Shown here: positions 764-25,397 of the stretch, piece after piece | How positions within the stretch are numbered: the first letter of the stretch is position 1 | Layout: every line of letters begins with the position of its first letter | Origin: Patescibacteria group bacterium | GTDB taxonomy: Bacteria; Patescibacteriota; Gracilibacteria; UBA1369; PNNO01 | Direction: 5' to 3' | Length of the DNA: 32,000 nt | Assembly: GCA_042568575.1 (NCBI GenBank) | Contig: JBHPIO010000011.1 | Location: forward strand, 1 to 32,000 | Made by a program: the position numbers and the translations under genes | Notes under the pieces: generated by a model | Seen by the model: only the letters and a program-made list of their open reading frames with translations | Told to the model about the DNA's origin: nothing | Databases searched by the model: none

Positions 764-823
764 GCCTTTAGTTTGTTCATTTACAATCAGGGCCTGTAGC
801 TCAGTTGGTCAGAGCAGTCGGCT

Positions 824-1428
824 TGAAGACCTTAAGCTAAGTTATGCTGTGGATTATGCAGTTCAGTGTGGCAATTGTGGCAAAGAAGAATACACTTTTT
901 AAGTTCTCTTTCTATTGCTGAATATTTTCGATTAGATAAAGATCTTAAATCTAATTTGAATTCTTTCTTTTTTGGATCTTGATGATGGAAAGTTAACGCA
1001 GAAAGATTCTTTTTATAACCACATATACCGCATTTACCTCCTAATTCTTGTACAATCCTCTTCTTTCTTCTTAATCCCCTCTCTTGTTGGGCATCATAAG
1101 ATTGATGAGCCTTATTCTTACAAGAAATAGAACAGAACATTTTCTGTTTGCCAATTAACTCCTTTCCACAAATCGTACAGTTTATGACCTTATTCATAAC
1201 TGTATAATAACATAATACGCTTAAGCGTCACAGGGCTGCTTGCGAAGTAATTCGCAAGTGATAACTTATCAAATTCGGGGAAGCCTAAATCTATTAAAGA
1301 TACGGTAATCCCGAGCCAAGCTCACATAAGTGAGAAGGTGTAGAGACTAGACGGTAAGCATCCTAACAGGATGAAGGGATAGTCCAGCTCACAAACCCGA
1401 AAGGGGCCATGAAAATGGTAGCGAGATG
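824..1428 (+). mobile_element. Group I intron (IC3-like, Azoarcus tRNA-Ile type) with a large P1-loop insertion
   Basis: The internal guide GGCTG (1234-1238) pairs with exon CGGCT (819-823), giving a U823-G1234 wobble at the splice site. It is followed directly by the P2 hairpin CTTGCGAA-GTAA-TTCGCAAG (1239-1258, GNRA loop). Core strings TCAAATTCGGGGAAGCCTAA (1269-1288), CCGAGCCAAGC (1311-1321) and GAAGGTGTAGAGACTAGACGG (1334-1354) are near-identical to the Azoarcus ribozyme core from memory. The intron ends in G1428. A stem between 828-837 and 1219-1229 closes the insertion. Confidence 0.85.
832..1197 (-). CDS. HNH (His-Me finger) homing-type endonuclease, encoded antisense to the intron
   Basis: 121 aa with CTICG and CGICG zinc-knuckle pairs, FHHQD, and a C-terminal LLCHNCHTELHN HNH signature. 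The whole ORF lies inside the intron L1 insertion but on the opposite strand. Confidence 0.8.
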   Translation of the reverse strand: MNKVINCTICGKELIGKQKMFCSISCKNKAHQSYDAQQERGLRRKKRIVQELGGKCGICGYKKNLSALTFHHQDPKKKEFKLDLRSLSNRKYSAIERELKKCILLCHNCHTELHNPQHNLA

Positions 1429-1542
1429 CATAACCGATTTGTCGCTGGTTCAAGTCCAGCCAGGCCCACCAAACGCTTTAGTATGCGAAAAACACACTCA
1501 AAAACTCTACATTGTTATTCAAAACCTTCTTTTTTAGGAGGT

Positions 1543-2694: not shown

Positions 2695-3645
2695 CTACTT
2701 CTTCAATACACGAAGCAGGGTTTTTACTACCGCTTTGGGCTTATCGATTTCTGATAAAGATTTGAAAACTTTGGGGGTAATTACTTTTCTAATTTGATCT
2801 TCAGGAACCGGATTCCCTGCTTCCTTAGCTTCCTCTACTACAGCCTCAACGAATGCATCGTATGGACCAGCTTCTTGAGAAACCAATTCTATGTTTACTA
2901 TACACTCATTTGGATCAAGTTCAGACTGAGCCATATCCACTTTGCATTCTTCCAATAGATTATTGAGTAAGCTTAATACAAAGGGGTAGTATGGTTGCTC
3001 ATCAGGATTTCCGTCTGTTCTTTCTAAATCGATATCTTTCCCATATTCTGATGCTGGAAGTTTTGGCCACCTAGCCGGATCTTCTCCAAAGTCCCCAGTT
3101 ATATTCATTAGCCATTTGTAGTCTGTTCTTGATGTTCTATCTGCTTCGTTTCGATATTCACGATCTCTCAGTAATCCAACCTGACCAAAAACTTCTGCAT
3201 TCTTCTTCCCGCGATATCTAAGACTTCCTTTAAAGGACTTTACTAGCAACCATTCTCCATCCTGATAGCCCTCCATTCCAATATGTGGTTGTTTCCTAGG
3301 ATCTCCACCTCTAAAATTCGACTGATAGTACCAAATCCGCTCCAGCTCCTTCTCTTTCTCCTCAGTAGCCTCTTCCGGAGCCATAGTTTTTATATTAGCC
3401 AAAGTAGCAGATACAACTGCATCTATTGAAGCATTTTCAGCTGGAATATCACTCAGCAATGGAGAAATTCCATTTAGCAGAGCTCTTTCTTGTTCGGTTA
3501 GTTCTTCTGAAGCAGCAAGCTTGTCTTTCAATCTCGACAGAACCTGCACCAATTGATCGAGCTGGTGTTCTTGCCCTTCAGGTGGCTGATCTATATGACG
3601 CGAATCGTCATCAACGTCCATGTTATACAGGATTAAGTACGTCAA
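2695..3645 (-). CDS. Hypothetical acidic protein (316 aa)
   Basis: Uninterrupted 951-nt ORF with a non-repetitive, plausible soluble composition. No motif recognised. Confidence 0.5.
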   Translation of the reverse strand: MTYLILYNMDVDDDSRHIDQPPEGQEHQLDQLVQVLSRLKDKLAASEELTEQERALLNGISPLLSDIPAENASIDAVVSATLANIKTMAPEEATEEKEKELERIWYYQSNFRGGDPRKQPHIGMEGYQDGEWLLVKSFKGSLRYRGKKNAEVFGQVGLLRDREYRNEADRTSRTDYKWLMNITGDFGEDPARWPKLPASEYGKDIDLERTDGNPDEQPYYPFVLSLLNNLLEECKVDMAQSELDPNECIVNIELVSQEAGPYDAFVEAVVEEAKEAGNPVPEDQIRKVITPKVFKSLSEIDKPKAVVKTLLRVLKK

Positions 3646-3862: not shown

Positions 3863-4771
3863 ATGGAAAAAAAGGAGCCATGGCTTCCTATCGAAGTAGT
3901 TTCATCATTGGTACGATCATTAGATCAAGGGGTTGATATTCTTACTATCGTCAATGAATATACAACGAATTTTACGAATCTTGATATTCTACGAGCATTA
4001 AGGAGAATGAAAGTTGATTCAGTTATAGAATTTAAAACCATGGATGAATACGTAACCTTTATGTGCACTTTAAATACAATAAATGATCCTCCAATAGATC
4101 CAGAAAATATTAGTATTAGAGATGCTTCGCATGATGATTTGGAAGAAATTGAGGAAATATACAAACTTTCAAGGGCTGACATCCACGATTTACCTGCATT
4201 TAGACGAAAAGGTGGGATTTTTAATCCTTTAAGCGAAGAGGATCTTCAAGGAAATCTAACTCACCCAAATTATAAATTACGTGTTTTAGAAGGTGAAGGA
4301 AAGATAATAGCTGCGACCGATTTTTTATTACCTCCAGGTAATGGTGAACTGGACAACATATACTTTGATTCAGCATTCGATCCTGTTTTTCTTGCAAAAG
4401 TTGAATCACGCTTAAGAGATTTTGTTTTAAAAAATATTGGAAAAATAACATGGATTCATGATTTAATAGTTCATCCAGATTACAAATCTTTGGTGGGAGC
4501 CATTTTTATGCAGAAAACGTTGAGGGCAATGTATGAAGAGTTTGGACTTGAATATGCTATGTCGGAAGTATGGGGCTTTTATCAAGGTGAAAAACCATAT
4601 GGAGAATTGTATTATAATATTCCTTCTACTTCTTTGCTTTTATTCAAAATAGGAGGATGTAGATTTGATGCTGTTGAAGAAAAAGTGCAAATTGATGATG
4701 TGGATTTAAACTTAGAAAGATATCCTTATTTATTTGATATCAAAAGATTAATTTCACAGGGGGGAATATAA
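3863..4771 (+). CDS. Hypothetical protein with a possible C-terminal GNAT-like acyltransferase fold and an about 80-aa N-terminal domain
   Basis: 302-aa ORF. The region ISIRDASHDDLEEIEEIY ... WIHDLIVHPDYKSLVGAIFMQKTLRAMYEEFGLEYAMSEV ... NIPSTSLLLFKIGG has GNAT-like beta4-alpha3-beta5-alpha4 spacing, but motif A is degenerate. Confidence 0.4.
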   Translation: MEKKEPWLPIEVVSSLVRSLDQGVDILTIVNEYTTNFTNLDILRALRRMKVDSVIEFKTMDEYVTFMCTLNTINDPPIDPENISIRDASHDDLEEIEEIYKLSRADIHDLPAFRRKGGIFNPLSEEDLQGNLTHPNYKLRVLEGEGKIIAATDFLLPPGNGELDNIYFDSAFDPVFLAKVESRLRDFVLKNIGKITWIHDLIVHPDYKSLVGAIFMQKTLRAMYEEFGLEYAMSEVWGFYQGEKPYGELYYNIPSTSLLLFKIGGCRFDAVEEKVQIDDVDLNLERYPYLFDIKRLISQGGI

Positions 4772-4926: not shown

Positions 4927-6222
4927 TTAATCTCGAAGCCGAAGGCTGAGAGGCCCAGTACTATCCCAATCAGTCCTACTATCTTCATAAGCCGTAATAT
5001 CACTGGAATCTCCAAGTTCACATTCTTGATAATCTGCATCTGTATATTCTGGAAATGGTTGCCAATCTTCTTTGGTACATAATTGAACTTCATCGTCGAC
5101 TATTATGGCTTCTTTAGGCAATATTGACTCAACATCTCCATATTCATACTTAGGATACAGATTCATTATAGTTTCAATTCTCTCAGCAAAATCATCACTT
5201 GGTTCTGGTATTAAAGCTGCACCATTAGTATCAATAACTTCACGAACTTTTTCTGCTACAGCTTGATTTTGTTGTTGGATACTTGGTCTATACGTACGTT
5301 GAGCATGATCACGTGCTTCCCTTGTACGCCTACTTCTCGAAAACATTCCTAAGCGGTCATAATGAAGAGATTGACCAGTTCCGATTTCCAAATCCCTCTC
5401 TAATGAAGCAATAAACAGCATTGTATATAAATCATATTTGTAAGCTTCTGCTTCCACCTCATGAACAATCTGATTCCCGGAACGAATAGAATCATATGTT
5501 CTTTCAGGATCCCCAGGATAAGAACTAGTTATCCTATTTTCCCCAACTACTCTATCAATTCCACCTATCTCTGCAGGTGTTTTTTGAGCCACATAAACTG
5601 CCAAGTCATTCCAAAACTCATTTTTATTCATACTGCCACCTAGCGTTTCCATATTGTGTTTTTCATGTTTTTCGTTTCCAATCCAAAAAGTCATGTCACG
5701 CACCTTTAATTTGCATCGTGATTCTCTTAAGAACTCCATATATGGCTCAAATTCACTGGATCCAGCCTCAATCAAACTTCCAATTATTCTCATTCTTCTT
5801 TCAATAAACTCTAAAGCTCTCGGATAATCGGTATGAATATAACTTTCGTGTTCCTGTGGCATATAAAGACCCTCGGCAATTCGTTGTTTTAATAGAGTAC
5901 CAAAGATTTCACTTCTAAAATCTCCTTCACCATAGAGTAGCTCCCATTGCCATAGTTCTGATGCCGTCTCAACAATTTCTCTAGCCTGATCTGGGCTATC
6001 TACAAGTGCTTCTTTAATTAAATATATATAAGCTTGCTTCAGTTCATCCATTCTAGTCAGATTTTCTTCTCGCTGAGCATTGCTTATTCGATCCCTTCCT
6101 TTTAGCATCTGCTGGGCATGTAATTCACCAAATTCTGCCGAAAGTCGCGTCAACTCTTGCAACTCCGGAAACTCAAATTTTTCACCAGCTTGTTCTGACA
6201 TGCTTAACCTTTTAAGAGGCAC
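4927..6222 (-). CDS. Hypothetical protein (431 aa)
   Basis: Uninterrupted 1296-nt ORF with ordinary soluble composition. No motif recognised. The nested ORF 4911..5093 and the plus-strand ORFs inside it are treated as shadows. Confidence 0.5.
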   Translation of the reverse strand: MPLKRLSMSEQAGEKFEFPELQELTRLSAEFGELHAQQMLKGRDRISNAQREENLTRMDELKQAYIYLIKEALVDSPDQAREIVETASELWQWELLYGEGDFRSEIFGTLLKQRIAEGLYMPQEHESYIHTDYPRALEFIERRMRIIGSLIEAGSSEFEPYMEFLRESRCKLKVRDMTFWIGNEKHEKHNMETLGGSMNKNEFWNDLAVYVAQKTPAEIGGIDRVVGENRITSSYPGDPERTYDSIRSGNQIVHEVEAEAYKYDLYTMLFIASLERDLEIGTGQSLHYDRLGMFSRSRRTREARDHAQRTYRPSIQQQNQAVAEKVREVIDTNGAALIPEPSDDFAERIETIMNLYPKYEYGDVESILPKEAIIVDDEVQLCTKEDWQPFPEYTDADYQECELGDSSDITAYEDSRTDWDSTGPLSLRLRD

Positions 6223-6298: not shown

Positions 6299-6375
6299 GG
6301 GGCATTAGCTCAGTTGGCTAGAGCGCTACGCTGGCAGCGTAGAGGCCACCGGTTCAAGCCCGGTATGCTCCACCA
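6299..6375 (+). tRNA. tRNA-Ala(GGC)
   Basis: GGGGCAT TA GCTC AGTTGGCTA GAGC G CTACG CTGGCAG CGTAG AGGCC ACCGG TTCAAGC CCGGT ATGCTCC A CCA. It has the G3-U70 alanine identity pair, anticodon GGC and encoded CCA. Confidence 0.9.
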
Positions 6376-7331: not shown

Positions 7332-7361
7332 TTGTCAAGGCAGAGCTCTTCTCAATTTAAT
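7332..7361 (+). promoter_or_regulatory. Candidate promoter of the hypC-hydE/hydG unit
   Basis: TTGTCA (7332-7337), 18-nt spacer, TTTAAT (7356-7361). If it is used, the ATG at 7360 cannot be the start codon. Confidence 0.3.
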
Positions 7362-7401
7362 GAATATCTATAAAATGTTGGAGCGCAACCTACCAAATAT
7401 T

Positions 7402-8661
7402 ATGTGCCTCACAATCCCCGCAAAAGTAGTTGAAGTTAAAGGAGAAAAGGCTGTCATCCAAAAAAATGACAAGCTCCAGGAAATCGATATTCGTACGATC
7501 GAAAACCTTAAAGTAGATGACTGGGTTCTTTATATGTCTGATATTGCTGTGCAAAAAGTTACGCCAGAAGACGCAAAGGAAATTCTTGAGCTACTCGAGC
7601 ACGTACAAAAAACAGATCCTGAAAAACTTGATCCGAAGTTTGTTGAAGTCATTAAACATTCGAAACAGCGAAGGCTTAATAAAGACGAAATCGAGTATCT
7701 TCTTGAAACTGACGGACTTGAAAAAGAGGCTCTTTATAGCGAATCTGAGATGATTCGTCGAACGCACATTAAGGACTTCTTCTGCATTCACGGAATTATT
7801 GAATTTTCTAATTTCTGCCAAAATGACTGCCTCTATTGCGGCCTTCAAAAACAGAATACTGCTATTCGGCGTTATCGAATGCCTATTAATGAAATAGTTG
7901 ATGCAGCTGATGAGGCGGTTAATAAAAAGGGCTATAAGTTGCTAGTTCTTCAGTCTGGCGAAGATCCATATTACACAAAAGAAATGCTTGTTGAACTTAT
8001 TCAAAAAATCAAAGAGAAGTGTAAGGTCTTTATCTTCATGAGTATTGGTGAACGTGATTTTGAAACATACAAGGCAATGAAAGACGCAGGAGCAAGCGGC
8101 GTTCTATTTAGGTTTGAATCGTCTAATCCTGACTTGTTTAAGAAGATTCATCCGGACGGCAAGAGTCTCGAAAAACGTTTTGAGCATTTGAAGTTCATGA
8201 AAGATCTAAAATATTTCATAGCTTCTGGAGGGATTATTGGCATTCCTGGTCAAACTATTTCTGACCTTGCCAATGACATTATTACAATCCGCAATAATGA
8301 TTACGACATGGTTTCGATGGGACCTTTTGTGCCTTGCCCAAATACTCCTTATGCAAATGAAAAGCCCGGCGACATCGAAATGAATCTTAAAATGATTTCT
8401 ACTTTAAGGCTTGAATTAAACAATAAACGAATTCCAGTTGTTACGGCTTTGGAAACTCTCGATCCTGAAAAAGGTCGAAAAAGAGCAATCCAGGCGGGTG
8501 CAAATGCTTTAATGCTCAATGTTACTCCCGAGAAATACGCTCCGCATTACGAGATCTATAAACGAAAACAAGCGCTCGACAATGAGATGTGGGAAAAATA
8601 CGGGTTGTATAATTCTGATGAAAGTTACAAAATGCTTGAAGAAAAATTAACCATCGACTAA
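7402..8661 (+). CDS. hydE: Fusion protein: N-terminal HypC/HupF-like [NiFe]-hydrogenase chaperone domain plus HydE-type radical SAM [FeFe]-hydrogenase maturase
   Basis: From the ATG at 7402 the protein begins MCLTIPAKVVEVKGEKAVIQ...VDDWVLYMSDIAVQKVTPEDAKEILELLE. This carries the HypC signature M-C-[LIV]-x-[IV]-P and the OB-fold pattern. It continues in frame into IIEFSNFCQNDCLYCGLQKQN (CX3CX2C), RYRMPINEIV, LVLQSGEDPYY, GIPGQTISDL and MVSMGPFVPCPNTPYANEKPGD, which closely match Thermotoga HydE from memory. Start 7402 is chosen because HypC function needs Cys at position 2; the track start 7360 and the ATG at 7375 are alternatives. Confidence 0.8.
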   Translation: MCLTIPAKVVEVKGEKAVIQKNDKLQEIDIRTIENLKVDDWVLYMSDIAVQKVTPEDAKEILELLEHVQKTDPEKLDPKFVEVIKHSKQRRLNKDEIEYLLETDGLEKEALYSESEMIRRTHIKDFFCIHGIIEFSNFCQNDCLYCGLQKQNTAIRRYRMPINEIVDAADEAVNKKGYKLLVLQSGEDPYYTKEMLVELIQKIKEKCKVFIFMSIGERDFETYKAMKDAGASGVLFRFESSNPDLFKKIHPDGKSLEKRFEHLKFMKDLKYFIASGGIIGIPGQTISDLANDIITIRNNDYDMVSMGPFVPCPNTPYANEKPGDIEMNLKMISTLRLELNNKRIPVVTALETLDPEKGRKRAIQAGANALMLNVTPEKYAPHYEIYKRKQALDNEMWEKYGLYNSDESYKMLEEKLTID

Positions 8662-10034
8662 TGTCTAAAACTTCACATATATTTGATGCGGATCAAATCA
8701 CGCATCTGGTAAGCTCAACGAAAAATCCTTCAAAGGATACTATTGAAAAAATTCTCCAAAAAGCCAAAAAAATGAGGGGCATCAATTTAGAAGAAGCCGC
8801 AACTTTAATAAACGCAGACAACCCTCATACAGAGGCAATGTTTAAAACGGCGGGATATATTAAAAACGAAATTTACGGAGAGCGGCTGGTTTTATTCGCT
8901 CCTCTTTATATTTCCAATTACTGCATCAACGACTGTGATTATTGTGGATTTCATGCAAGAAATAAACAAAAACGAATTAAGCTTTCTTTAAAGGAGGTTG
9001 AAGAACAAACACGAATTTTGATCAACATGGGGCATAAAAGATTGCTTCTTGAATTTGGGGAGCATCCGGTTGAAGCACCAATCGATTATATAATTGATGT
9101 TATTAAAACTATTTATAGCGTTAAGGAAGGACGCGGAGAGATTCGTCGTTTGAATGTAAATATTGCTGCGACTACAGTTGAGGACTACAAGAAACTGAAA
9201 GCAGCTGAAATTGGAACGTATCAACTTTTCCAGGAAACATATGATCGGGAAACTTATGAGAGACTTCACAAAGGTCCAAAAGGAGATTTTGAAAGGCAGC
9301 TTTTTGCGCATGATAGAGCGTTTGAAGGCGGAATTGATGATGTGGGGCTTGGGGTGCTTTATGGACTTTACGATTGGAAATTCGATACACTTGCTCTTCT
9401 TTCACATGCGTTTTATTTGGATAAGAAATATGGAGTTGGACCTCATACTTTTTCTGTGCCACGCCTCCAATCTGCACCTACTGTTGATGAAGACTGGCCT
9501 TATGAGGTTACTGAGGATGAACTGCTTAAAATAATAGCTATTTTGCGAATGGCAGTACCTTATACCGGCATGATTATTTCAACGCGTGAAAGGGCTGAAA
9601 TTCGTGAGAAGGCGTTTGAACTTGGCATTTCTCAAACAAGTGCTGCGTCGCAAACATCACCGGGTGGATATGGAAAAGAAGAAGCGCTGAATCAATTTAC
9701 AACGTCTGATGAAAGAAGTGTCGATGAAGTAATTGAGAAAATCCTAGATGATGGATTTATGCCGAGTTTTTGCACGGCCTGTTATCGTTTAGGACGGACT
9801 GGCCAGGACTTTATGGATATTGCAAAACCTGGAGAAATTCATAATTTCTGCAGGCCAAATGCGATTCTTACGTTAAAAGAGTATTTGGAGGATTATGCAT
9901 CTGAGCGCTCAAAAGCAAAAGGACTTAAAATAATCGATAAATATGTGGAAAAGATTCCTTCAAATTCTGTTCGTGAAAAAACTGTAAACAGGCTGAAGTT
10001 AATTGAAAAAGGTGAAAGAGATTTATACTTCTAA
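8661..10034 (+). CDS. hydG: HydG-type radical SAM tyrosine lyase (CO/CN-synthon-forming [FeFe]-hydrogenase maturase)
   Basis: 457 aa. LVLFAPLYISNYCINDCDYCGFHARNK and MGHKRLLLEFGEHP are present, plus the HydG-specific C-terminal cluster motif SFCTACYRLGRTGQDFM...FCRPNA, which distinguishes it from ThiH. The ATG overlaps the hydE stop (TAATG). Confidence 0.85.
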   Translation: MSKTSHIFDADQITHLVSSTKNPSKDTIEKILQKAKKMRGINLEEAATLINADNPHTEAMFKTAGYIKNEIYGERLVLFAPLYISNYCINDCDYCGFHARNKQKRIKLSLKEVEEQTRILINMGHKRLLLEFGEHPVEAPIDYIIDVIKTIYSVKEGRGEIRRLNVNIAATTVEDYKKLKAAEIGTYQLFQETYDRETYERLHKGPKGDFERQLFAHDRAFEGGIDDVGLGVLYGLYDWKFDTLALLSHAFYLDKKYGVGPHTFSVPRLQSAPTVDEDWPYEVTEDELLKIIAILRMAVPYTGMIISTRERAEIREKAFELGISQTSAASQTSPGGYGKEEALNQFTTSDERSVDEVIEKILDDGFMPSFCTACYRLGRTGQDFMDIAKPGEIHNFCRPNAILTLKEYLEDYASERSKAKGLKIIDKYVEKIPSNSVREKTVNRLKLIEKGERDLYF

Positions 10035-10035
10035 T

Positions 10036-10064
10036 TTGACAATTTTGAACTTTGTGGCTAAAAT
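10036..10064 (+). promoter_or_regulatory. Near-consensus sigma70 promoter upstream of the PP2C gene
   Basis: TTGACA (10036-10041), exactly 17 nt, TAAAAT (10059-10064). The GTG at 10052 used by the ORF track lies inside the spacer. Confidence 0.5.
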
Positions 10065-10090
10065 TCGCTCCTTGGAAATTAATATCTAAA

Positions 10091-11272
10091 ATGATTGAAG
10101 AAAGCTTGAAAGACCCTGGGAGCAGGAGTAGTAGTGAAAAAAATGGCCATGACCCTGAGCTGCATGAAATTGCAGAGGAATGTGATAGAAATCCAGTAAA
10201 TATATTTGGAGAAGAAACTGGCAATGAAGCAGGTGAGGTTATACAGGCAATTTATGGAATTCCTAATAGCCACTTTGATCAACCGTTAAACTCGCTTGGT
10301 GTTATTCCAGAAGGAATGTACGCTGCAAGTTGCGATGAAGACAGAAGCCTCCGAGATGATGTCCCTGGTGGACTTGTTGAACATGAAGGTGTGATTTTTT
10401 ATGCAACAACCGATCACGGAGTGCTAAGAAGCTGTGACGAACGAAAACCGCACAATGACGATGCATATTTTGTGATTCCTGAACAAAAAACGATTGGTGC
10501 TGCAGATGGCGTTAGTGGGAACCCAAAAAGAAATGATAAAGGACGTATGGCAGCTTCGGTTGCAACACTTGCAGCACTAATGGAAGCGCACCTTGATCTA
10601 CCGATGAGAAAATTAATAGAAATAATGCATGGAGCCGCTTTAAAACATAGATTATTTATAAGAGATCAATGGAAAAAACAAAAACAAAAAAAGGAAAAAG
10701 AGCCTCCAAAAAACTTAACTACAAGCACCGTAGCTCGCCTTAATAATAACAACGTTATTGAGTGTGCAAGTATAGGAAATACACGAGCGTTAGTTATTAG
10801 AGGGGAAAAAGCTCATCGCCTAACTTATGATCACACGATGCTAAATAGCAAAATGGGACATATGGAAATAACTGAAGAGCAAGCTTTTCGTATATTCGGA
10901 CCTTTCGCAATTCGTATGAAAAACAACCTTGTACAAGCGCTTGGGAGTGATGAAAATTTGCATCCTGGCGAAGATCCTGATTCTAATATAAAGCATGTGA
11001 ATATCAAACCTTTCTATGAAACGTTTCAGGCTCAAGGTGGGGATGTTTTATTAATATGTTCGGATGGAGTTACAGATGTTATGACTGACGACGAAATCGC
11101 TGAGTTTGTTTATGAAAGGAGACAAAAAAACATGTCTCTAGCAGAAATAATTGATGAACTTAAAGAGCATGTAATTTATCTAATGAAATACAGTCGCAAT
11201 GGGGATCATGAATATCCAAATAAACACGATGGCGACAACATTGTGATAGTCGGACTCGTTGTTCCGGAATAA
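10091..11272 (+). CDS. PP2C/PPM-family Ser/Thr protein phosphatase with an about 120-aa acidic N-terminal extension
   Basis: NDDAYFV, GAADGVSG, LLICSDGVTDVMTDDEI and a C-terminal GDNIVIVGL are the PPM motifs. The start is set to the first ATG downstream of the promoter. Confidence 0.75.
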   Translation: MIEESLKDPGSRSSSEKNGHDPELHEIAEECDRNPVNIFGEETGNEAGEVIQAIYGIPNSHFDQPLNSLGVIPEGMYAASCDEDRSLRDDVPGGLVEHEGVIFYATTDHGVLRSCDERKPHNDDAYFVIPEQKTIGAADGVSGNPKRNDKGRMAASVATLAALMEAHLDLPMRKLIEIMHGAALKHRLFIRDQWKKQKQKKEKEPPKNLTTSTVARLNNNNVIECASIGNTRALVIRGEKAHRLTYDHTMLNSKMGHMEITEEQAFRIFGPFAIRMKNNLVQALGSDENLHPGEDPDSNIKHVNIKPFYETFQAQGGDVLLICSDGVTDVMTDDEIAEFVYERRQKNMSLAEIIDELKEHVIYLMKYSRNGDHEYPNKHDGDNIVIVGLVVPE

Positions 11273-15492: not shown

Positions 15493-15723
15493 ATGACTAA
15501 AGAAGTATCAACTTGTCCACAACTTATTACAACAGAACCATTTCAACTACATCCAAAACCTACTATAAAAGCAGATGGTGAGATAGTAAGTGTAAGTAAA
15601 CTACAAACTCCAGAGTGTAGAGCCATGTCCCATTGTAGCGATACAATTAGAATAGATTTTAATCATGCAGTAAAAGTTTGCATGAGTGATGATCATGTAA
15701 ATTGTCCTCAATTCAGAGGCTAG
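15493..15723 (+). CDS. Small Cys-rich hypothetical protein (76 aa)
   Basis: It uses the first ATG after the promoter. Five Cys are present (C8, C42, C48, C63, C71). No family recognised and no obvious SD. Its stop TAG shares the tetranucleotide CTAG with the stop of the convergent ATPase gene. Confidence 0.35.
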   Translation: MTKEVSTCPQLITTEPFQLHPKPTIKADGEIVSVSKLQTPECRAMSHCSDTIRIDFNHAVKVCMSDDHVNCPQFRG

Positions 15724-17990
15724 ATCATCGGTTCCTCGAAATCTTCCGGCTGATCACCAGGCGCCAATTCAATTTCACCTGACTCATCCCACTTGGAAAG
15801 CATGTCTTCAACTTTAGCTACTGGAGTTGAGTATTTCTTTCGAGACTGTTCTACAATTTCTTTAGTGTAATCGTCTTTTGGCTTAACCACATCGAGAGTT
15901 CGGCCTGAGAACGGCCTTCGTACTTCTCCTTTTATGGACATCTTTGTGTAGAAATTTCGAACCGCAAGATTGATAATATCACGAACTTTAAATACCGGAG
16001 TGTACTCATTTTCCAAAACTACGGCATCGTCAGCACCTACACGGAATGTGATCATTGAGCCAACATTACCAAATACAGTCTTTACCATCTGATCAGTTAA
16101 TTGCCCCACAAACTGATGGGCAATCGTTAAATTTAATCTATATTTACGTGCCTCAGATAAAATTTCTTCAAAAGTATCTGTAGCAAAGTTCTGGAACTCA
16201 TCCACATAGAAGTAGAAATCAGTTCGATCCTCTTCTCGCATATCAGCACGACTCATTGCTGCCTGATACATTTTCGTAATAATCATAGCTCCGATCAAAT
16301 TCGAGTTTTCTTCTCCAAGTAGACCTTTAGACACCTTCATCAATAGGATCTTCTTTTTATCCATTACTTCTCGAATGTTGAATTTGTTAGTTGGTTGACC
16401 AATAATATTTCTAATCATGTTCGTTGCAACAAACTGACCAACTTTATTCAAAAGAGGTGTAATTGCCTCAGCATCAAATTTTTCACTCCATCCAGCAAAC
16501 TCGTTCACCCAGAAGTTTTTAACGACCGAATCTTTAATTCTGGCTGTGATCGTTTGTCTGTAATTCTTGTCCGAAAGCATCTTTAAGATACTCAAAACAG
16601 TTGTGTTTGGTGAGTCAAGAAGCGCCAGAGTTGTGTATCTTAAAACGTGTTCGAGCCTGTCACTCCAGTTTGAACCGAATAGCTTTTTAAAGATATTAAT
16701 AAACCCGACAGTCATCTGCATCTTGTATGCTTCATCAACCTTCTCCAGTGGATTAAACGCAATCGGGAAGTTTGTATCTCCAGGATCAAAATAAACTACA
16801 TCATTAATACGATCTTCTGGGATCATCTGCATAATATTATCAACAAGATCTCCATGAGGATCCAAAACCGCTACACCTTCACCATTTTTAATATCTTCAC
16901 TAATAAAAAGTTCAAGTAGTTTACTTTTCCCTGTACCACTCTTACCTACTGTATAAAGATGTCTTCTTCTGTCTTCACGTTTTATTCCAAAATCATCAAA
17001 CGAATTATGATAATTTGTTTTACCAAAGAAACTCACATCTTTGCCTCGAGTTTTTGGAAGATCCTGAGGCGGTTCCGCCTTTTTAGATAAGACATGGACG
17101 ATATGCGGCACATGGTCAGAATTTGGAAAATGATATAAAGTCGCCAGTTCCTTTGCGCTTAAGATCTGATCTTCATCCATATTTCTCTTTCGGAATGACT
17201 CCAAAAAGGATTTTGCACGAATTGGTCTGCCTGCGACAAACTCATTGAAGTCAATTTTATTATACTGATAAAACGCCTTCGAAATGGCTTCCAAACGAGC
17301 ATTGGCAAGTTGTTGATCTTTAGCAAAACATGCCAGTCGTACCTGGAACTTGAATGGATGAGTTGCCGTTTTTTCAATAAATGCCTTCTTCTCTTCTTCA
17401 AAGAATTCCTTTCTTCCCTTTAGCCTTGTGTAGTTTTTAAGGCGGAATACCCTTTTGATTCCGTTAAAGAACATGCGAAATCTCCGTTGTAAATGATAAA
17501 GCCAGTTGTCATGTTTAGGTGAAACAAGAATTTGAACCCAAAGTTGTTCATCCTGTCCTATTTTTGAAATAACCGCAAAGGCTCCTGCCAAACTATCTAC
17601 TTCAAAATCTTCATAATCGAGAATTGGATAAATGTCGCTCCTTTTTAATTTAAGCTTTGCTCCAGCAAAAGGAAGTTTTTGAGTTATTGCAAAATTAGTA
17701 TAATCCTTGCTATCAATAATTTCGCAATCCGGAAAAGTACTATATAAAAGCCCTTCAACAAGCGCAAAAAGATCAGCCGGCGCTACAATATAGAAATAAG
17801 AATATTGCCTATATCCAAATACTTCAAGACTAATTGTGCGACCTTTAATGGATTTATAAAGGTTATTCAGAAACTGAAGAAATTTTACTTCCTTTTTAGG
17901 ATCAGCTTCTGTTCCTTGAGGGACTACTACATGTAAATATTTTAGATCCATGTGAGGCTTTAAAAAATGTACCGTTGCATCGTGACACAT
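15720..17990 (-). CDS. VirD4/TraD-like (TraG_D_C / DUF87-type) P-loop ATPase with a large non-membrane N-terminal domain
   Basis: 756 aa. Walker A is YTVGKSGTGKSKLL, followed by AVLDPHGDL, Walker B FYFYVDEFQNF and ARKYRLNLTIAHQFVGQL, typical of type IV coupling-protein-like ATPases. No N-terminal TM helices. The start could be the ATG at 17951 (MDLKYL...). Confidence 0.65.
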   Translation of the reverse strand: MCHDATVHFLKPHMDLKYLHVVVPQGTEADPKKEVKFLQFLNNLYKSIKGRTISLEVFGYRQYSYFYIVAPADLFALVEGLLYSTFPDCEIIDSKDYTNFAITQKLPFAGAKLKLKRSDIYPILDYEDFEVDSLAGAFAVISKIGQDEQLWVQILVSPKHDNWLYHLQRRFRMFFNGIKRVFRLKNYTRLKGRKEFFEEEKKAFIEKTATHPFKFQVRLACFAKDQQLANARLEAISKAFYQYNKIDFNEFVAGRPIRAKSFLESFRKRNMDEDQILSAKELATLYHFPNSDHVPHIVHVLSKKAEPPQDLPKTRGKDVSFFGKTNYHNSFDDFGIKREDRRRHLYTVGKSGTGKSKLLELFISEDIKNGEGVAVLDPHGDLVDNIMQMIPEDRINDVVYFDPGDTNFPIAFNPLEKVDEAYKMQMTVGFINIFKKLFGSNWSDRLEHVLRYTTLALLDSPNTTVLSILKMLSDKNYRQTITARIKDSVVKNFWVNEFAGWSEKFDAEAITPLLNKVGQFVATNMIRNIIGQPTNKFNIREVMDKKKILLMKVSKGLLGEENSNLIGAMIITKMYQAAMSRADMREEDRTDFYFYVDEFQNFATDTFEEILSEARKYRLNLTIAHQFVGQLTDQMVKTVFGNVGSMITFRVGADDAVVLENEYTPVFKVRDIINLAVRNFYTKMSIKGEVRRPFSGRTLDVVKPKDDYTKEIVEQSRKKYSTPVAKVEDMLSKWDESGEIELAPGDQPEDFEEPMI

Positions 17991-23178: not shown

Positions 23179-24891
23179 ATGGCAGCAAAAAAACGACTGA
23201 ATGGTTCGCAAATATTATTTGAATGCCTTCTTGCTGAAGGTGTGGATACAGTCTTTGGGTATCCTGGCGGCGCCGTCCTCCCAATTTATGACACAATGCC
23301 GCAATACAAAAAAATCAGACACATTTTAGTAAGGCACGAGCAAGGCGCCGCCTTCGCAGCAGAGGGTTACGCCCGTGTCACAGGCAAACCCGGTGTTTGC
23401 TTCGCAACCTCGGGCCCCGGTGCAACAAACCTCGTAACTGGAATCGCAAACGCATACTTGGACTCCATTCCTGTCGTCTACTTCACAGGCCAAGTACCTC
23501 TTAGTGTTATCGGAACAGATGCCTTCCAGGAAATCGACATCGCCGGTATCAGCATCCCAATCACAAAACACAACTACCTCGTTGATGACGTGAAAGACCT
23601 AGCTCGAGTAATTAAAGAGGCATTCCACATTGCAACTCACGGAAGACCCGGCCCGGTTCTTATCGACCTACCTAAAGACGTTCAAGTCCATGAAACCGAA
23701 TTCGAGTATCCTAAAACAGTTAACCTTCCCGGATATAGACCTAAAACCGAGGGCTCCTCTAAACAAGTTAAAAGAGCAATCAGTACTATTGCAAAGGCAA
23801 AAAAGCCACTTATCATTGCTGGCCACGGAGTACTTCTAAGCGATGCATCAAAAGAATTCGTTGAATTCGTTGATAAATATCAAATCCCTGTGGTTAACAC
23901 AATCCTCGGCCTCGGATCAATCCCAGAAGATCATCCGCTGGCACTTGGAATGCTTGGTATGCACGGTCACGCTGTTTGTAACTACGCTACCCATCATGCT
24001 GATCTCATTATCGGCCTCGGAGAACGTTTTGACGACAGAATCACCGGTGATCTCAAAACCTTTGCGAAAGGTGCTGACATCATCCACATCGACATCGATC
24101 CTGCAGAAATCGGCAAGAATACTCACGTTACTGTTCCCATCGTAGGTGACTGCAAAAAAGTACTTAAGTCATTCAATAAAGAAACTACAAAATCATCCAA
24201 AAGCAAATACTCAAAATGGATGAGCGAACTTACTAAATACACTGAAAAAACTGCTGCTTTCCAGGAAAGAAAACTCCGCACAAAAAGTCGAAAGGACTCA
24301 GATATTCCTCGTGTTGGGGAAGTAGTCCAGGCTATCCGCAAAGTTGCAGACAAGGATGCTATTTTCGTAACCGATGTCGGACAGCACCAAATGTTCGCAG
24401 CACAGAATTACCATTTCTCTCATCCAAATACTATTGTTACTTCTGGCGGACTGGGATCAATGGGTTTTGCCCTTCCCGCTGCTATGGGAGCGAAGTTAGC
24501 TAAACCTAACAAAGAAGTCTGGGTTATCTGTGGTGACGGAGGATTCCAAATGAACATTCAGGAACTTCAAACCCTTATTCAGGATAAAATCGATCTCAAA
24601 ATTGTCATTAGCAATAACGGATTCCTTGGCATGGTTCGACAATGGCAGGATCTTTTCTATAAGAAGCAGTATATCGGCACACCAATGACTGTGCCAAACA
24701 TTGAGAAACTCAGCGATGCATACGGTCACAAGTACGTTAAAGCAACTACAAAAGGTGAAATTCTTCCTGCTCTTGAGAAAGCAAAGAAAACTAAAGGAAC
24801 TGTTATTTGTGAATGCATTACTGAATCTGAGGAAAACGTATTCCCAATGGTTCCAAGCGGGAAATCCCTTGAAGACACATTAATCGGCTAA
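23179..24891 (+). CDS. ilvB: Acetolactate synthase (acetohydroxy-acid synthase) large catalytic subunit, ThDP-dependent
   Basis: 570 aa. GSQILFECLLAEGVDTVFGYPGGAVLPIYD, HEQGAAFAAEGYARVTGKPGVCFATSGPGATNLVTG and the ThDP motif GDGGFQMNIQELQT...NNG are present. Confidence 0.9.
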   Translation: MAAKKRLNGSQILFECLLAEGVDTVFGYPGGAVLPIYDTMPQYKKIRHILVRHEQGAAFAAEGYARVTGKPGVCFATSGPGATNLVTGIANAYLDSIPVVYFTGQVPLSVIGTDAFQEIDIAGISIPITKHNYLVDDVKDLARVIKEAFHIATHGRPGPVLIDLPKDVQVHETEFEYPKTVNLPGYRPKTEGSSKQVKRAISTIAKAKKPLIIAGHGVLLSDASKEFVEFVDKYQIPVVNTILGLGSIPEDHPLALGMLGMHGHAVCNYATHHADLIIGLGERFDDRITGDLKTFAKGADIIHIDIDPAEIGKNTHVTVPIVGDCKKVLKSFNKETTKSSKSKYSKWMSELTKYTEKTAAFQERKLRTKSRKDSDIPRVGEVVQAIRKVADKDAIFVTDVGQHQMFAAQNYHFSHPNTIVTSGGLGSMGFALPAAMGAKLAKPNKEVWVICGDGGFQMNIQELQTLIQDKIDLKIVISNNGFLGMVRQWQDLFYKKQYIGTPMTVPNIEKLSDAYGHKYVKATTKGEILPALEKAKKTKGTVICECITESEENVFPMVPSGKSLEDTLIG

Positions 24892-24902
24892 CATTACTTC
24901 CC

Positions 24903-25397
24903 ATGGCAATAACTGACGAAGACAAAAAATTCCTCGAAATTATTGATAGAGAAGAACCTAATGCAAACTGCCTGCGTGCAAACATAGCAGCAGCAATTGT
25001 TAAAGATGGAGAACTCCTCATAAAGCACTGTAACGACTGGCACCCTGAATATAACTGCAGCGAAATAGGATGCATCCGCAATGAAATGAAAGTTGAATCA
25101 GGTACTCGCCGCGAAATATGCTACGGTATATGTGCAGAACAATGGTGCCTTGCCCTTGCCGCAAAGCAAGGATTAAACGTTGAAGGCTCAACAATGTACT
25201 GCACAAAACATCCATGCCGGGTCTGCTCCAGTTTAATTGCCGAATCAGGCATTAAAAGAGTTGTCTTCCAAGAAGGTTACCCGGAAGTTGTCCCCCGTTT
25301 CAACATCCTTAAAGATCGAGGCATAATAGTCGAACAAGGTCCAAACATTGTTTACCCAGATGACGCACCGCCTGAACGAAAGATCTGGTCGGTTTAA
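24903..25397 (+). CDS. dCMP/cytidine deaminase-family zinc enzyme (ComEB-like)
   Basis: 164 aa. GICAEQWCLALAA (C-A-E in place of the usual H-A-E) and HPCRVCSSLIAESGIKRVVF (PCxxC) are present. Confidence 0.7.
   Translation: MAITDEDKKFLEIIDREEPNANCLRANIAAAIVKDGELLIKHCNDWHPEYNCSEIGCIRNEMKVESGTRREICYGICAEQWCLALAAKQGLNVEGSTMYCTKHPCRVCSSLIAESGIKRVVFQEGYPEVVPRFNILKDRGIIVEQGPNIVYPDDAPPERKIWSV

Follow-up and report, generated by a model that had tools for sequence, protein, structure and literature searches.

How can a protein-coding gene reside within a gene for a structured, untranslated RNA? The question is raised by a locus in the 32-kb stretch of DNA analysed here (hereafter the window), in which two halves of a tRNA gene, a 5' exon at 790-823 (+ strand, tRNA positions 1-33) and a 3' exon at 1429-1471 (+ strand, from the anticodon CAU to the encoded CCA), are separated by 605 nt that hold an open reading frame (ORF) on the opposite strand. 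Other genes of the window encode IlvB (relatives at 74-94% identity; Chloroflexota/Dehalococcoidia at ~55%), a HydE-type protein and biosynthetic functions, a gene set that speaks against a typical CPR host. When joined, the exons are recognized by ARAGORN as a 77-nt cloverleaf with the anticodon loop CT|CATAA, and the 3' end of the first exon is U33, i.e., U(-1) of the intron. The split gene was missed by ARAGORN on the unspliced window; the intron-mode calls of the program, e.g., a tRNA-Ser(tga) with an intron at 37/38, were rejected, since under them the 5' splice site would follow an A and the intron would end in U. When the spliced tRNA was compared with those of 5426 E. coli genomes, the top match in every genome was the annotated tRNA-Ile with a CAT anticodon (86-87% identity, full-length). 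Additionally, C4-G69 and C5-G68, which we take to be determinants for TilS, the enzyme of the C34-to-lysidine conversion, are found in the spliced tRNA. Because G1-C72 is paired and the anticodon stem reads GUCGG, not GGG, an initiator is excluded, and, judged by its sequence, the host gene is an elongator tRNA(CAU) nearest to tRNA-Ile2 and not a tRNA-Met. A weak candidate -10 box of this gene, TATAAT (758-763, + strand), precedes the 5' end of the tRNA by 26 nt; for want of a good -35 element it was not called by the consensus promoter scan.

The sequence between the exons (824-1428, + strand) has the features of a group I intron of the IC3-like bacterial tRNA intron type, its boundaries being set, in the window as across 72 split loci found in other genomes (see below), by the rule that U(-1) precedes the intron and a G ends it. 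The Rfam Intron_gpI model (RF00028) matches 1219-1409 (+ strand) over its full length with 64.7 bits, above the gathering score of 50 (E = 1.9e-14). The exon strand of P1, CGGCU (819-823), pairs with the internal guide sequence GGCUG (1234-1238), which places the 5' splice site at the wobble U823·G1234; this U·G wobble recurs in 72 of 72 split genes, the window counted, as does the terminal intron G (omega G, here G1428), which is itself a criterion by which the splice sites were placed. A motif search found one guide motif GGGCUG per split gene in all 72 (window counted), and at one locus (L070) P1 shows a compensatory change, the exon GGACT facing the guide GGTT. P2 follows as an 8-bp hairpin with a GUAA loop (1239-1258; 1239-1246 with 1251-1258), and across 64 loci 9/9 aligned pairs of the P2 region, in two helix segments, are kept, 8 of them with compensatory changes. 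The catalytic core P3-P8 (1265-1384, + strand) was assigned from covariation and an alignment (A2) that places P3 at 1265-1270/1353-1358, P4 at 1275-1280/1309-1314, P5 at 1284-1285/1304-1305, P6 at 1315-1317/1337-1339, P6a at 1321-1325/1330-1334, P7 at 1345-1349/1380-1384 and P8 at 1359-1364/1368-1373. Covariation likewise defines the P9 domain (1388-1425, + strand), which comprises P9 (1388-1390/1423-1425), P9a (1396-1398/1403-1405) and P9b (1406-1410/1415-1419), the latter two with GAAA loops, and which shows compensatory changes in 10 of 11 pairs.

Taken over 64 loci, the named ribozyme structure is paired in 96.7% of cells and carries compensatory changes in 40 of 54 pairs, compared with 30-46% pairing for slid control structures and 0/500 shuffles that reach the observed values. 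RNAalifold on alignment A2 gave compensatory changes in 37 of 56 pairs. The P7 pair 157/214, for instance, is AU in 37, GC in 25 and UA in 2 of the 64 loci, and the P3/P7 pseudoknot core of the window intron is thus backed by covariation. This evidence supports the assignment of 824-1428 as a group I intron that splits tRNA-Ile(CAU) at 33/34 and is predicted to self-excise. The preliminary description of this DNA, drawn from the bare sequence, had already arrived at the perfect cloverleaf from the two exons, the splice point between nucleotides 33 and 34, the CGGCT-GGCTG pairing with its U-G wobble, the 8-bp P2 with a GTAA loop and the intron end at G1428; all of these held up, as did its expectation of a covariance-model match.

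The same data bear on whether the interrupted gene could be a dead copy, the work being done by a second, uninterrupted tRNA-Ile2 gene elsewhere. ARAGORN found no further tRNA(CAU) gene in the window, which covers 32 kb of the genome and so leaves room for such a gene, and P10 is nearly absent, amounting to at most 1 bp (C1429-G1233). However, the exons form a perfect cloverleaf, small CPR genomes have the split arrangement as a rule, and every ribozyme helix persists across 64 loci with compensatory changes, a pattern that decay would not yield. We therefore consider a dead copy extremely improbable.

The intron had been described as Azoarcus-type, a label that is only partly apt. Like the Azoarcus pre-tRNA-Ile(CAU) intron (Ile2.5Ug), it interrupts the same tRNA species and has an IC3-type core, with the strings AAAUUCGG.GAA, CCGAGCCAAG, GGUGUAGAGACUAGACGG and AUAGUCCAG in common; these conserved strings are, however, shared by all IC3-like bacterial tRNA introns. 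The identity of 77% to the Azoarcus ribozyme over aligned columns is not above that to tRNA-Leu or tRNA-fMet introns. Moreover, the Azoarcus intron is inserted at 36/37 with a CAU/GUG P1, as opposed to 33/34 and CGGCU/GGCUG in the window (the difference in splice point having been noted in the preliminary description), and it lacks an ORF, its P1 being short and its P9 region different. Seven gammaproteobacterial loci described below share the Azoarcus site, and the window does not. Over aligned columns, higher identities were obtained with the seeds of the classes Met.2Ug and Ile2.2Ug (82% each) and with fMet.2Ug (80%). The insertion class Ile2.2Ug has already been catalogued (K. P. Williams 2020, bioRxiv 10.1101/2020.01.27.920355), and the supplement of that work contains the ORF-less seeds Sba135.Met.2Ug and Gba28.Ile2.2Ug, with the same site and the same guide. 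These classes and the window intron share insertion after the second anticodon-loop nucleotide, U(-1), the terminal G and the guide GGGCU, and Ile2.2Ug also shares the host tRNA type. In contrast to the window intron, the seed members are short and ORF-less, and the published account of the class describes no nuclease, antisense gene or promoter.

What sets the window intron apart lies in its P1 loop. The sole long ORF of this loop (832-1197, - strand) encodes 121 aa, and none of the sense-strand ORFs in the loop exceeds 52 aa according to the ORF list, which also settles the earlier concern that one might have been overlooked. In the protein a Cys4 zinc ribbon at the N terminus precedes an HNH domain, with matches to Pfam HNH (PF01844; 24.4 bits, cut-off 21.4) and to the PHROG family phrog_2255 "HNH endonuclease" (7.8e-20). 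A look-up of the exact protein sequence returned no entry. The protein has 212 homologues at 57-83% identity, and in 28 diverse homologues C56, C59, H71, H72, N89, C106, N108, C109, H110 and H114 are invariant, including the C-terminal motif C106-x-N108-C109-H110 followed by H114. The AlphaFold model (pLDDT 91) shows a strand at 69-72, a strand at 102-105 and a helix at 107-114, candidate elements of a ββα-metal fold. Its top Foldseek matches are nearly all HNH nucleases (Cap5, T4 EndoVII, Gme HNH, Cas9), at weak scores (best E 0.07), and a PDB sequence search returned McrA alone (E 0.03). The profile matches, the invariant residues and the model support the assignment of 832-1197 as an HNH-family nuclease gene within an extended P1 hairpin, encoding a protein predicted to be active. 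Its small size, together with the weak structural matches, speaks against a homing enzyme that has a long target.

The loop is closed by an extension of P1. Nucleotides 828-837 pair with 1219-1229, C1226 being bulged, and RNAduplex adds 841-850/1207-1216, which lengthens to 19 bp the 10-bp closing stem with one bulge that had been proposed. The 5' strand (828-850, + strand) shares its sequence with the final codons and stop codon of the antisense ORF, and the 3' strand spans 1207-1229 (+ strand). The earlier reading of this region, an opposite-strand HNH gene as the only ORF in an extended P1 hairpin loop, with its stop codon inside the closing stem, was borne out in each respect: the stop TAA (834-832) falls within 828-837, and the architecture recurs across 72 genome loci. 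The extension has a predicted stability of -17.5 kcal/mol in the window (z = -3.1 versus shuffles). Across loci, cognate duplexes average -16.4 kcal/mol versus -8.5 kcal/mol for non-cognate ones (p = 2.5e-13), the cognate duplex being the better in 69 of 72 loci, with a median z of -2.8 versus shuffles. In 60/72 loci the use of G·U pairs makes the fold of the sense strand more stable than that of the antisense strand. A third helix, a perfect 11 bp in the window (853-863/1198-1208), would bring the E-L-H-N codons into pairing with the nuclease gene's -10/start region; it is not claimed as conserved, because its fixed register is 62% paired across loci, compared with 30-56% for other offsets, and clean covariation is lacking.

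The opposite strand of the same stem appears to carry the promoter of the nuclease gene. A promoter scan of the minus strand shows TATTAT at 1209-1204 with a TG extension (extended -10 element TGtTATTAT, 1204-1212) and the -35 element GTGACG (1226-1231), which falls within the sequence of the 3' P1-extension strand. In 60/68 loci the -10 hexamer, of the pattern TAnnnT, is spaced from the ATG by exactly 6 nt, and base frequencies over -12 to -7 in the 68 loci are T 91% and A 92%, followed by A 69% and T 95%. A Shine-Dalgarno-like motif occurs in only 3 of 68 loci. The -35 hexamer matches TTGACA in at least four of six positions in 34/68 loci (4/6 in the window), and in 49 of 67 loci its start and the guide-sequence complement are 0-1 nt apart. 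Since the window -35 matches at 4/6 and the scan of the region yielded sites not above shuffles (3 versus 4.8), we base the promoter call on cross-locus conservation, which supports a σ70-type promoter belonging to the nuclease gene itself. The fixed distance between the -10 element and the ATG suggests a leaderless mRNA, with transcription predicted to start at the ATG. Of the two promoter elements pointed out previously, TATTAT is thus upheld by its conserved position, whereas TATACA merely overlaps it. Additionally, a possible mimic of the target site (TTCATAAC/TTCATAATC) is located near the nuclease start in type A and type B loci and in 6 of 38 viral loci; we note it as an observation that perhaps reflects mimicry, not as a finding.

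Relatives of the nuclease are encoded in 520 GTDB species genomes. In 72 of the best 80 genome loci the nuclease gene lies antisense in the P1 loop inside a tRNA(CAU) gene split at 33/34, in the pattern GGCT|...G|CATAA and with introns of 593-684 nt. The hosts belong to at least seven named lineages, among them Gracili-, Peregrini-, Morani- and Saccharibacteria (CPR), Anaerolineae, Latescibacteria, Krumholzibacteriia and Acidobacteria, and type A nuclease copies are also found on IMG/VR contigs. Because the same three-part layout is present in at least 72 genomes, the predicted design of a split tRNA with an antisense HNH gene is real and widespread across many bacterial phyla.

Two further layouts place the nuclease next to a tRNA gene. 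In seven gammaproteobacterial loci a free-standing homologue precedes a tRNA(CAU) gene by 77-123 nt, in divergent orientation, and this tRNA gene is itself interrupted at 36/37 by an unrelated intron that lacks an ORF. On IMG/VR contigs, 74 of 79 homologues are located in tRNA arrays, and a Tequintavirus homologue likewise lies in a phage tRNA cluster. The nearest tRNA within 200 nt is a tRNA(CAU) in 32/60 cases, compared with 17% CAU tRNAs there, an association with tRNA(CAU) in phage contigs that is an enrichment and not a rule.

These layouts help to judge whether the HNH gene could be a selfish passenger that invades the intron instead of travelling with it, its target being the P1-loop DNA of ORF-less 33/34 introns, so that the intron would spread or persist independently of the nuclease. 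That ORF-less introns with the same site and guide exist (Sba135.Met.2Ug and Gba28.Ile2.2Ug), at 82% identity over aligned columns, would fit such a history, and so would the peripheral position in the fold of a gene with its own promoter, as expected of a late invader. These relatives are known from the published seed alignment only, because a metagenome scan with the pattern GAGCAGNCGGCTN{4,30}GGGCTG returned chance matches in GC-rich coding DNA with no tRNA context. Against a passenger, the nuclease family adjoins uninterrupted tRNA(CAU) genes in phage arrays and, elsewhere, a tRNA-Ile2 gene with another intron, which ties it to the tRNA gene and not to one particular loop. In addition, the P1-loop flanks are so different among loci that they would make a poor conserved target. 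A passenger within the intron is therefore unlikely, and the most likely target of the nuclease, as far as its genomic neighbours indicate, is tRNA-Ile2 DNA.

Alternatively, the nuclease or the antisense transcript could have been domesticated, acting as a maturase or tuning tRNA-Ile2 supply and AUA decoding, with homing no longer the main role. The ORF is intact in 64/72 loci, and in 70/72 when UGA is read as Gly in code-25 hosts, which would indicate long residence under purifying selection instead of the usual cycle of gain, decay and loss. Its end and its promoter belong to the P1 helix, and it even extends into exon 1 in 49 of 64 loci. However, the HNH catalytic residues are invariant, and the 55-72% identity of the protein across unrelated phyla (best 80 loci), together with its occurrence on viral contigs, fits recent horizontal spread. 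Furthermore, the existence of ORF-less relatives of the ribozyme indicates that the nuclease protein is dispensable for folding in general. Domestication thus seems very unlikely, more so than a passenger.

Instead, we regard it as likely that the element is a mobile intron and that its nuclease homes together with it by way of intron-less tRNA-Ile2 genes. Under this proposal, transcription from the tRNA promoter would yield a precursor in which the P1 extension of 18-20 bp loops out the antisense nuclease sequence (~330 nt) and also positions the 5' splice site (U823·G1234) opposite the internal guide. The IC3-type ribozyme (1234-1428) would then excise all 605 nt and ligate U33 to C34. On the opposite strand, a σ70-type promoter within the DNA that codes for the 3' strand of the P1 extension would drive the nuclease gene, its -35 element abutting the guide complement and its -10 element ending 6 nt before the ATG, to give a leaderless mRNA that would never be part of the pre-tRNA. 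Because this transcript would begin at the ATG, it would be without the partner strand of the stem. The nuclease would act on intron-less tRNA-Ile2 genes by a nick or cut in the region of the anticodon loop, and repair from the intron-bearing allele would copy in the intron along with the nuclease gene; the carrier would be immune because the intron itself splits the target. The tRNA and nuclease promoters would be convergent and ~440 bp apart, which probably holds nuclease expression at a low level. From this geometry it is a reasonable inference, already drawn earlier from the antisense orientation, that convergent transcription would collide with tRNA synthesis or give antisense RNA to the precursor.

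Several known systems share parts of this arrangement. The tRNA-fMet intron of Synechocystis PCC 6803 (fMet.2Ug) occupies the same anticodon-loop position and, with 655 nt and a 150-codon ORF, is of similar size; its endonuclease I-Ssp6803I, however, is of the PD-(D/E)XK family and its host is tRNA-fMet, as opposed to an HNH nuclease in tRNA-Ile2. Antisense endonuclease genes with their own intronic promoter are known from eukaryotic nuclear rDNA introns (I-DirII of Didymium; L2066) (PMC3073962; PMC9548176), where, as in the window, the gene lies opposite the host RNA gene. Whereas those systems combine a His-Cys box enzyme with a Pol II promoter, a spliceosomal intron, a poly(A) tail and an rRNA host, the window system is bacterial and combines an HNH enzyme with a predicted σ70-type promoter, a leaderless mRNA and a tRNA host. 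Free-standing endonucleases of phage tRNA clusters, such as T4 SegB and T5 F-TflI/II/IV (PMC2330249), resemble by their setting the relatives of the window nuclease (35-60% identity) that stand free in phage arrays. The window gene differs in lying inside an intron, and SegB is a GIY-YIG enzyme, as opposed to the predicted HNH nuclease of the window. Finally, the gammaproteobacterial loci, with a free-standing nuclease and an ORF-less intron in its presumed target, fit the idea of trans or collaborative homing, as in T4 mobE with I-TevIII (PMC2790892; PMC2330249). Our search of the literature, which covered few subscription journals, turned up no bacterial tRNA intron whose endonuclease gene is antisense. 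The architecture is thus apparently undescribed, its intron class Ile2.2Ug having already been catalogued.

A more far-reaching reading, which we put forward tentatively and to which we give somewhat less than even credence, is that ribozyme and nuclease gene are physically interlocked in a selfish element that crosses phyla, with dual-use sequence, stages of capture and possibly regulation. In this reading, the strands of the P1 extension double on the opposite strand as the σ70 promoter and the last codons of the nuclease gene, and the mRNA never contains the P1-extension helix because it is leaderless and antisense. The free-standing genes of phage arrays, those beside an intron-protected tRNA-Ile2 and those embedded in the intron would be a series leading to the merger of endonuclease and intron. 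Convergent promoters, perhaps with the mimic TTCATAAC/TTCATAATC, would make nuclease expression fall as transcription of the sole AUA-decoding tRNA rises, and vice versa.

The split gene also has practical consequences, as carriers seem to be without tRNA-Ile2 or to have spurious tRNA-Ser, -Leu or -Thr genes, which affects inferences on completeness and codon usage for metagenome-derived CPR and Chloroflexota genomes. If the 121-aa nuclease recognizes a nearly universal 20-30 bp segment of a tRNA gene, it could serve as a small site-specific nickase or cutter. According to the literature found, this would be the first homing endonuclease gene of a bacterial intron located on the antisense strand. 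The occurrence of one nuclease family in three layouts at one target gene offers a natural series on which ideas about how mobile introns arise can be tested. Placed on the opposite strand and read from its own predicted promoter as a leaderless mRNA, the gene would represent a compact solution to expressing a protein from within a structured, untranslated RNA gene while ribosomes do not disturb the folding of the ribozyme.

Region 790-1471 was inspected on both strands, and in the raw window sequence ARAGORN called no tRNA there. Once exons 790-823 and 1429-1471 are joined, the same program folds them into a 77-nt cloverleaf of canonical form, in which the anticodon is CAU and the loop CU/CAUAA (the slash marking the splice site), as the preliminary description had claimed for the two tRNA halves. 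In its intron mode, ARAGORN returned tRNA-Ser(tga) with an intron at 37/38, which would require the 5' exon to end in A and the intron to end in U; this call is an artefact of the canonical intron position being forced. The spliced tRNA matched an annotated tRNA-Ile in all of 5426 complete E. coli genomes (86-87% identity, full length), and because the matched gene has a CAT anticodon, the product is assigned to tRNA-Ile2. In line with this, it contains C4-G69 and C5-G68, which we take to be TilS determinants, and its paired G1-C72 and an anticodon stem that is not G-rich show that it is not an initiator.

The Rfam group I intron model matches 1219-1409 (+) over its full length (64.7 bits against a gathering score of 50, E 1.9e-14), bearing out the proposed intron type. 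U823 is the last nucleotide of the 5' exon and G1428 that of the intron, and the elements expected from the preliminary description can be read directly from the plus strand: P1 pairs CGGCU (819-823) with GGCUG (1234-1238), placing the wobble U823·G1234 at the splice site, and P2 (1239-1258) is an 8-bp stem closed by a GUAA loop. From the splice site to the guide sequence (the 3' strand of P1), the antisense HNH gene at 832-1197 (-), of 121 aa, is the sole ORF of substantial length; the search for an overlooked sense ORF in this interval gave at most 52 aa, and the stop codon lies, as described, within the closing stem 828-837/1219-1229. This ORF matches Pfam HNH (24.4 bits against a threshold of 21.4), and neither its zinc-binding cysteines nor its H-H...N...H catalytic residues vary among the homologues compared. 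Its AlphaFold model is confident (pLDDT 91), and the structural neighbours of the model are nearly all HNH nucleases, with weak scores.

The main result is that this arrangement is not unique to the window but recurs widely. A protein collection holds 212 relatives of the nuclease at 57-83% identity, mostly metagenomic, with CPR lineages making up those that are named. Several end in ...SLSRLL, which is what the 3' end of tRNA exon 1 encodes when read antisense and was a first sign that the layout is shared. Screening a single genome for each species turned up 520 that encode a relative. Among the 80 best loci, 72 have a tRNA(CAU) gene that runs antisense to the nuclease and is split as GGCT/...G/CATAA; two more loci are interrupted by contig ends, with the ribozyme on the strand opposite the nuclease. 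The hosts comprise Gracili-, Peregrini-, Morani- and Saccharibacteria, Anaerolineae and other Chloroflexota, Latescibacteria, Krumholzibacteriia and one acidobacterium. Introns at the 72 loci measure 593-684 nt, save one of 1307 nt. In the 61 whose true nuclease start was identified by the ORF finder, the ATG falls at intron nt 369-382 (in 59 of them at 369-377). The 1307-nt intron, from an Anaerolineae MAG (L026), has ~700 extra nt in its ribozyme half and gave no Rfam group I match at the gathering score; it may contain a second insertion or a disrupted ribozyme. Additionally, three IMG/VR contigs classed as viral (L201, L225 and L251; 38-113 kb) carry the full layout, one within a tRNA array, and are possibly vehicles of cross-phylum spread or misclassified bacterial contigs.

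Both the gene and the ribozyme appear conserved across these loci. The nuclease ORF is intact in 64/72 under the standard code and in 70/72 once UGA is read as glycine in six Gracilibacteria-type loci (L031, L034, L043, L044, L046 and L047, whose broken ORFs then become intact at 120-151 aa), which indicates a gene adapted to its hosts' genetic code. Its stop codon falls inside the intron at 15/64 loci, the window among them, and in the antisense of exon 1 at 49/64. For the ribozyme, aligned from guide sequence to terminal G over 64 distinct loci, RNAalifold predicted 56 pairs, 37 of them compensatory. With helices P2, P3, P4, P5, P6, P6a, P7 (the pseudoknot), P8, P9, P9a and P9b named for a pairing test, standard pairs occupied 96.7% of 3444 cells, falling to 30-46% when partners were slid; double changes occurred in 40 of 54 pairs, and none of 500 shuffles matched any observed measure.

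The long helix extending P1 was assessed by pairing the first 32 nt of each intron with the 34 nt preceding its own guide sequence (72 loci). Cognate duplexes, with a median of 18 bp, averaged -16.4 kcal/mol and non-cognate ones -8.5; the cognate duplex was the better at 69/72 loci (p = 2.5e-13), with a median z of -2.8 relative to shuffles of the same segment. Owing to G·U pairs, the duplex is stabler on the tRNA-sense strand than on the opposite strand at 60/72 loci, which marks it as a helix of the precursor RNA and not a mere inverted repeat in DNA. In the window, the predicted duplex comprises 828-837/1219-1229 and 841-850/1207-1216 (+). A further perfect 11-bp complementarity (one G·U), 853-863/1198-1208, joins the nuclease E-L-H-N codons to the gene's own -10/start region and would bring the extension to ~30 bp; this helix was not conserved in register at other loci.

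The nuclease gene was also expected to have its own promoter, with a TATTAT element on the minus strand, and a promoter scan independent of the cross-locus frequencies called precisely such a site: an extended -10, TGtTATTAT, at 1212-1204 and a -35, GTGACG, at 1231-1226 (-). Across loci, the six minus-strand bases at -12 to -7, counted from the first base of the ATG, are T (91%), A (92%), n, n, A (69%) and T (95%). This hexamer stands exactly 6 nt from the ATG at 60/68 loci and has a TGn extension at 27/68. A TTGACA-like hexamer (at least 4/6 matches at 34/68) starts 0-1 nt from the guide-sequence complement at 49/67; just 3/68 have a Shine-Dalgarno-like motif. A hexamer at the canonical -12 to -7 makes the A of the ATG +1, implying a leaderless mRNA. 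Such a predicted transcript would begin only past the 3' strand of the P1 extension, leaving the helix to be formed, probably, by the sense precursor alone. A candidate tRNA promoter (-10 TATAAT, 758-763, +) converges on the nuclease promoter from ~440 bp away, a spacing at which transcriptional interference between the two is plausible.

Copies of the tRNA anticodon loop and 3' stem, 7-9 nt long, lie at the nuclease start or a little upstream of it in the window, in the intergenic regions of free-standing gammaproteobacterial nuclease loci and in viral loci L208, L252, L253, L256, L274 and L275. The window copy (1193-1200, sense) is TTCATAAC, for which the tRNA has CTCATAACC; TTCATAATC also occurs near the nuclease start, often as an inverted pair, its tRNA counterpart being CTCATAATCC. 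These copies could be an autorepression operator or a relic of insertion. GTT at -3 to -1 is 85-89% conserved, though expected to be untranscribed.

The free-standing relatives bear indirectly on the target of the nuclease. Seven gammaproteobacterial loci (L063, L074, L076-L080; MAGs) encode a homologue (52-60% identity) outside any intron; it is flanked on one side by the end of rpoD and on the other, 77-123 nt away, by a divergently oriented tRNA(CAU) gene (tRNA starts at reverse-complement ~2937-2985; 1007 in L076). There the tRNA is split after the anticodon (ACTCAT/...G/AATCC), at the 36/37 position of Azoarcus, by an ORF-less intron of a different subtype (234-274 nt, Rfam 64-82 bits), whose in silico splicing restores tRNA(CAU) in 7/7. 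At L074, a tRNA 5'-half fragment (GGGCCTGTAGCTCAGTTGGTCAGAGCAG; reverse-complement 2467-2494) adjoins the 3' end of the nuclease gene, with the complete intron-bearing tRNA 470 nt beyond; the fragment resembles the remnant of a tRNA copy that the antisense nuclease gene interrupted. IMG/VR viral contigs hold 297 relatives, and 74 of the best 79 lie within tRNA arrays; among these 79, tRNA(CAU) is the closest tRNA within 200 nt in 32/60 cases, CAU accounting for 17% of the tRNAs there. Cultured-phage homologues (35-43% identity) include one from a T5-like Salmonella phage, within a tRNA cluster. That one nuclease family occurs near tRNA(CAU) genes whose anticodon loops are split by one or other of two unrelated introns is the pattern expected if the nuclease recognises tRNA-Ile2 DNA around the anticodon loop, where an intron would then give immunity.

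Immediately upstream of the split tRNA gene lie CbiM/CbiN fragments; ORFs 1857-2645, 2695-3645, 3863-4771 and 4927-6222, just downstream, matched no NCBIfam family. The window also contains tRNA-Ala(GGC) (6299-6375), HydE-type maturases, one of them a radical SAM maturase with ORFs downstream (7360-11272), a VirD4/TraD-like coupling protein (15720-17990, -) and the acetolactate synthase large subunit followed by one ORF (23179-25397). IlvB has relatives at 74-94% identity, and Chloroflexota ones at ~55%. On this gene content and these matches, the host is probably no typical CPR bacterium.

Classical group I introns of bacterial tRNAs reside in the Leu, fMet and Arg genes and in the Ile gene of Azoarcus. 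The window ribozyme is 77-82% identical to all compared seeds over aligned columns, so that "Azoarcus-type" holds as a shared IC3-like core and not as any special affinity to Azoarcus; the insertion site differs, CU/CAUAA (33/34) versus 36/37. The intron class is already known: a catalogue of 21 tRNA/position classes includes Ile2.2Ug and Met.2Ug, as ORF-less seeds, and remarks that long introns may hold protein genes, with nothing further on them (bioRxiv 10.1101/2020.01.27.920355). I-Ssp6803I, the one endonuclease characterised from a bacterial tRNA intron, is a PD-(D/E)XK enzyme in tRNA-fMet, whereas the window nuclease is an HNH enzyme in tRNA-Ile2. Antisense endonuclease genes are known from eukaryotic nuclear rDNA introns, e.g., I-DirII (PMC3073962; PMC9548176), free-standing endonucleases from phage tRNA clusters (SegB, F-TflI/II/IV; PMC2330249), and trans-homing from mobE (PMC2790892). 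The literature covered, which was incomplete, described no bacterial tRNA intron whose HNH gene is antisense and has its own promoter.

Standard tRNA finders overlook the split gene (window 790-1471, loci L001-L075) or, with intron mode on and position 37/38 forced, name it tRNA-Ser, -Leu or -Thr, so that carrier genomes will seem to lack tRNA-Ile2. The feature is real and its earlier interpretation essentially right; judged from sequence, it belongs to a large family of mobile tRNA-Ile2 introns that spans several phyla. What appears to be a new twist on mobile introns is the antisense HNH gene embedded in P1, with its predicted leaderless mRNA, together with the links of this gene to free-standing relatives.
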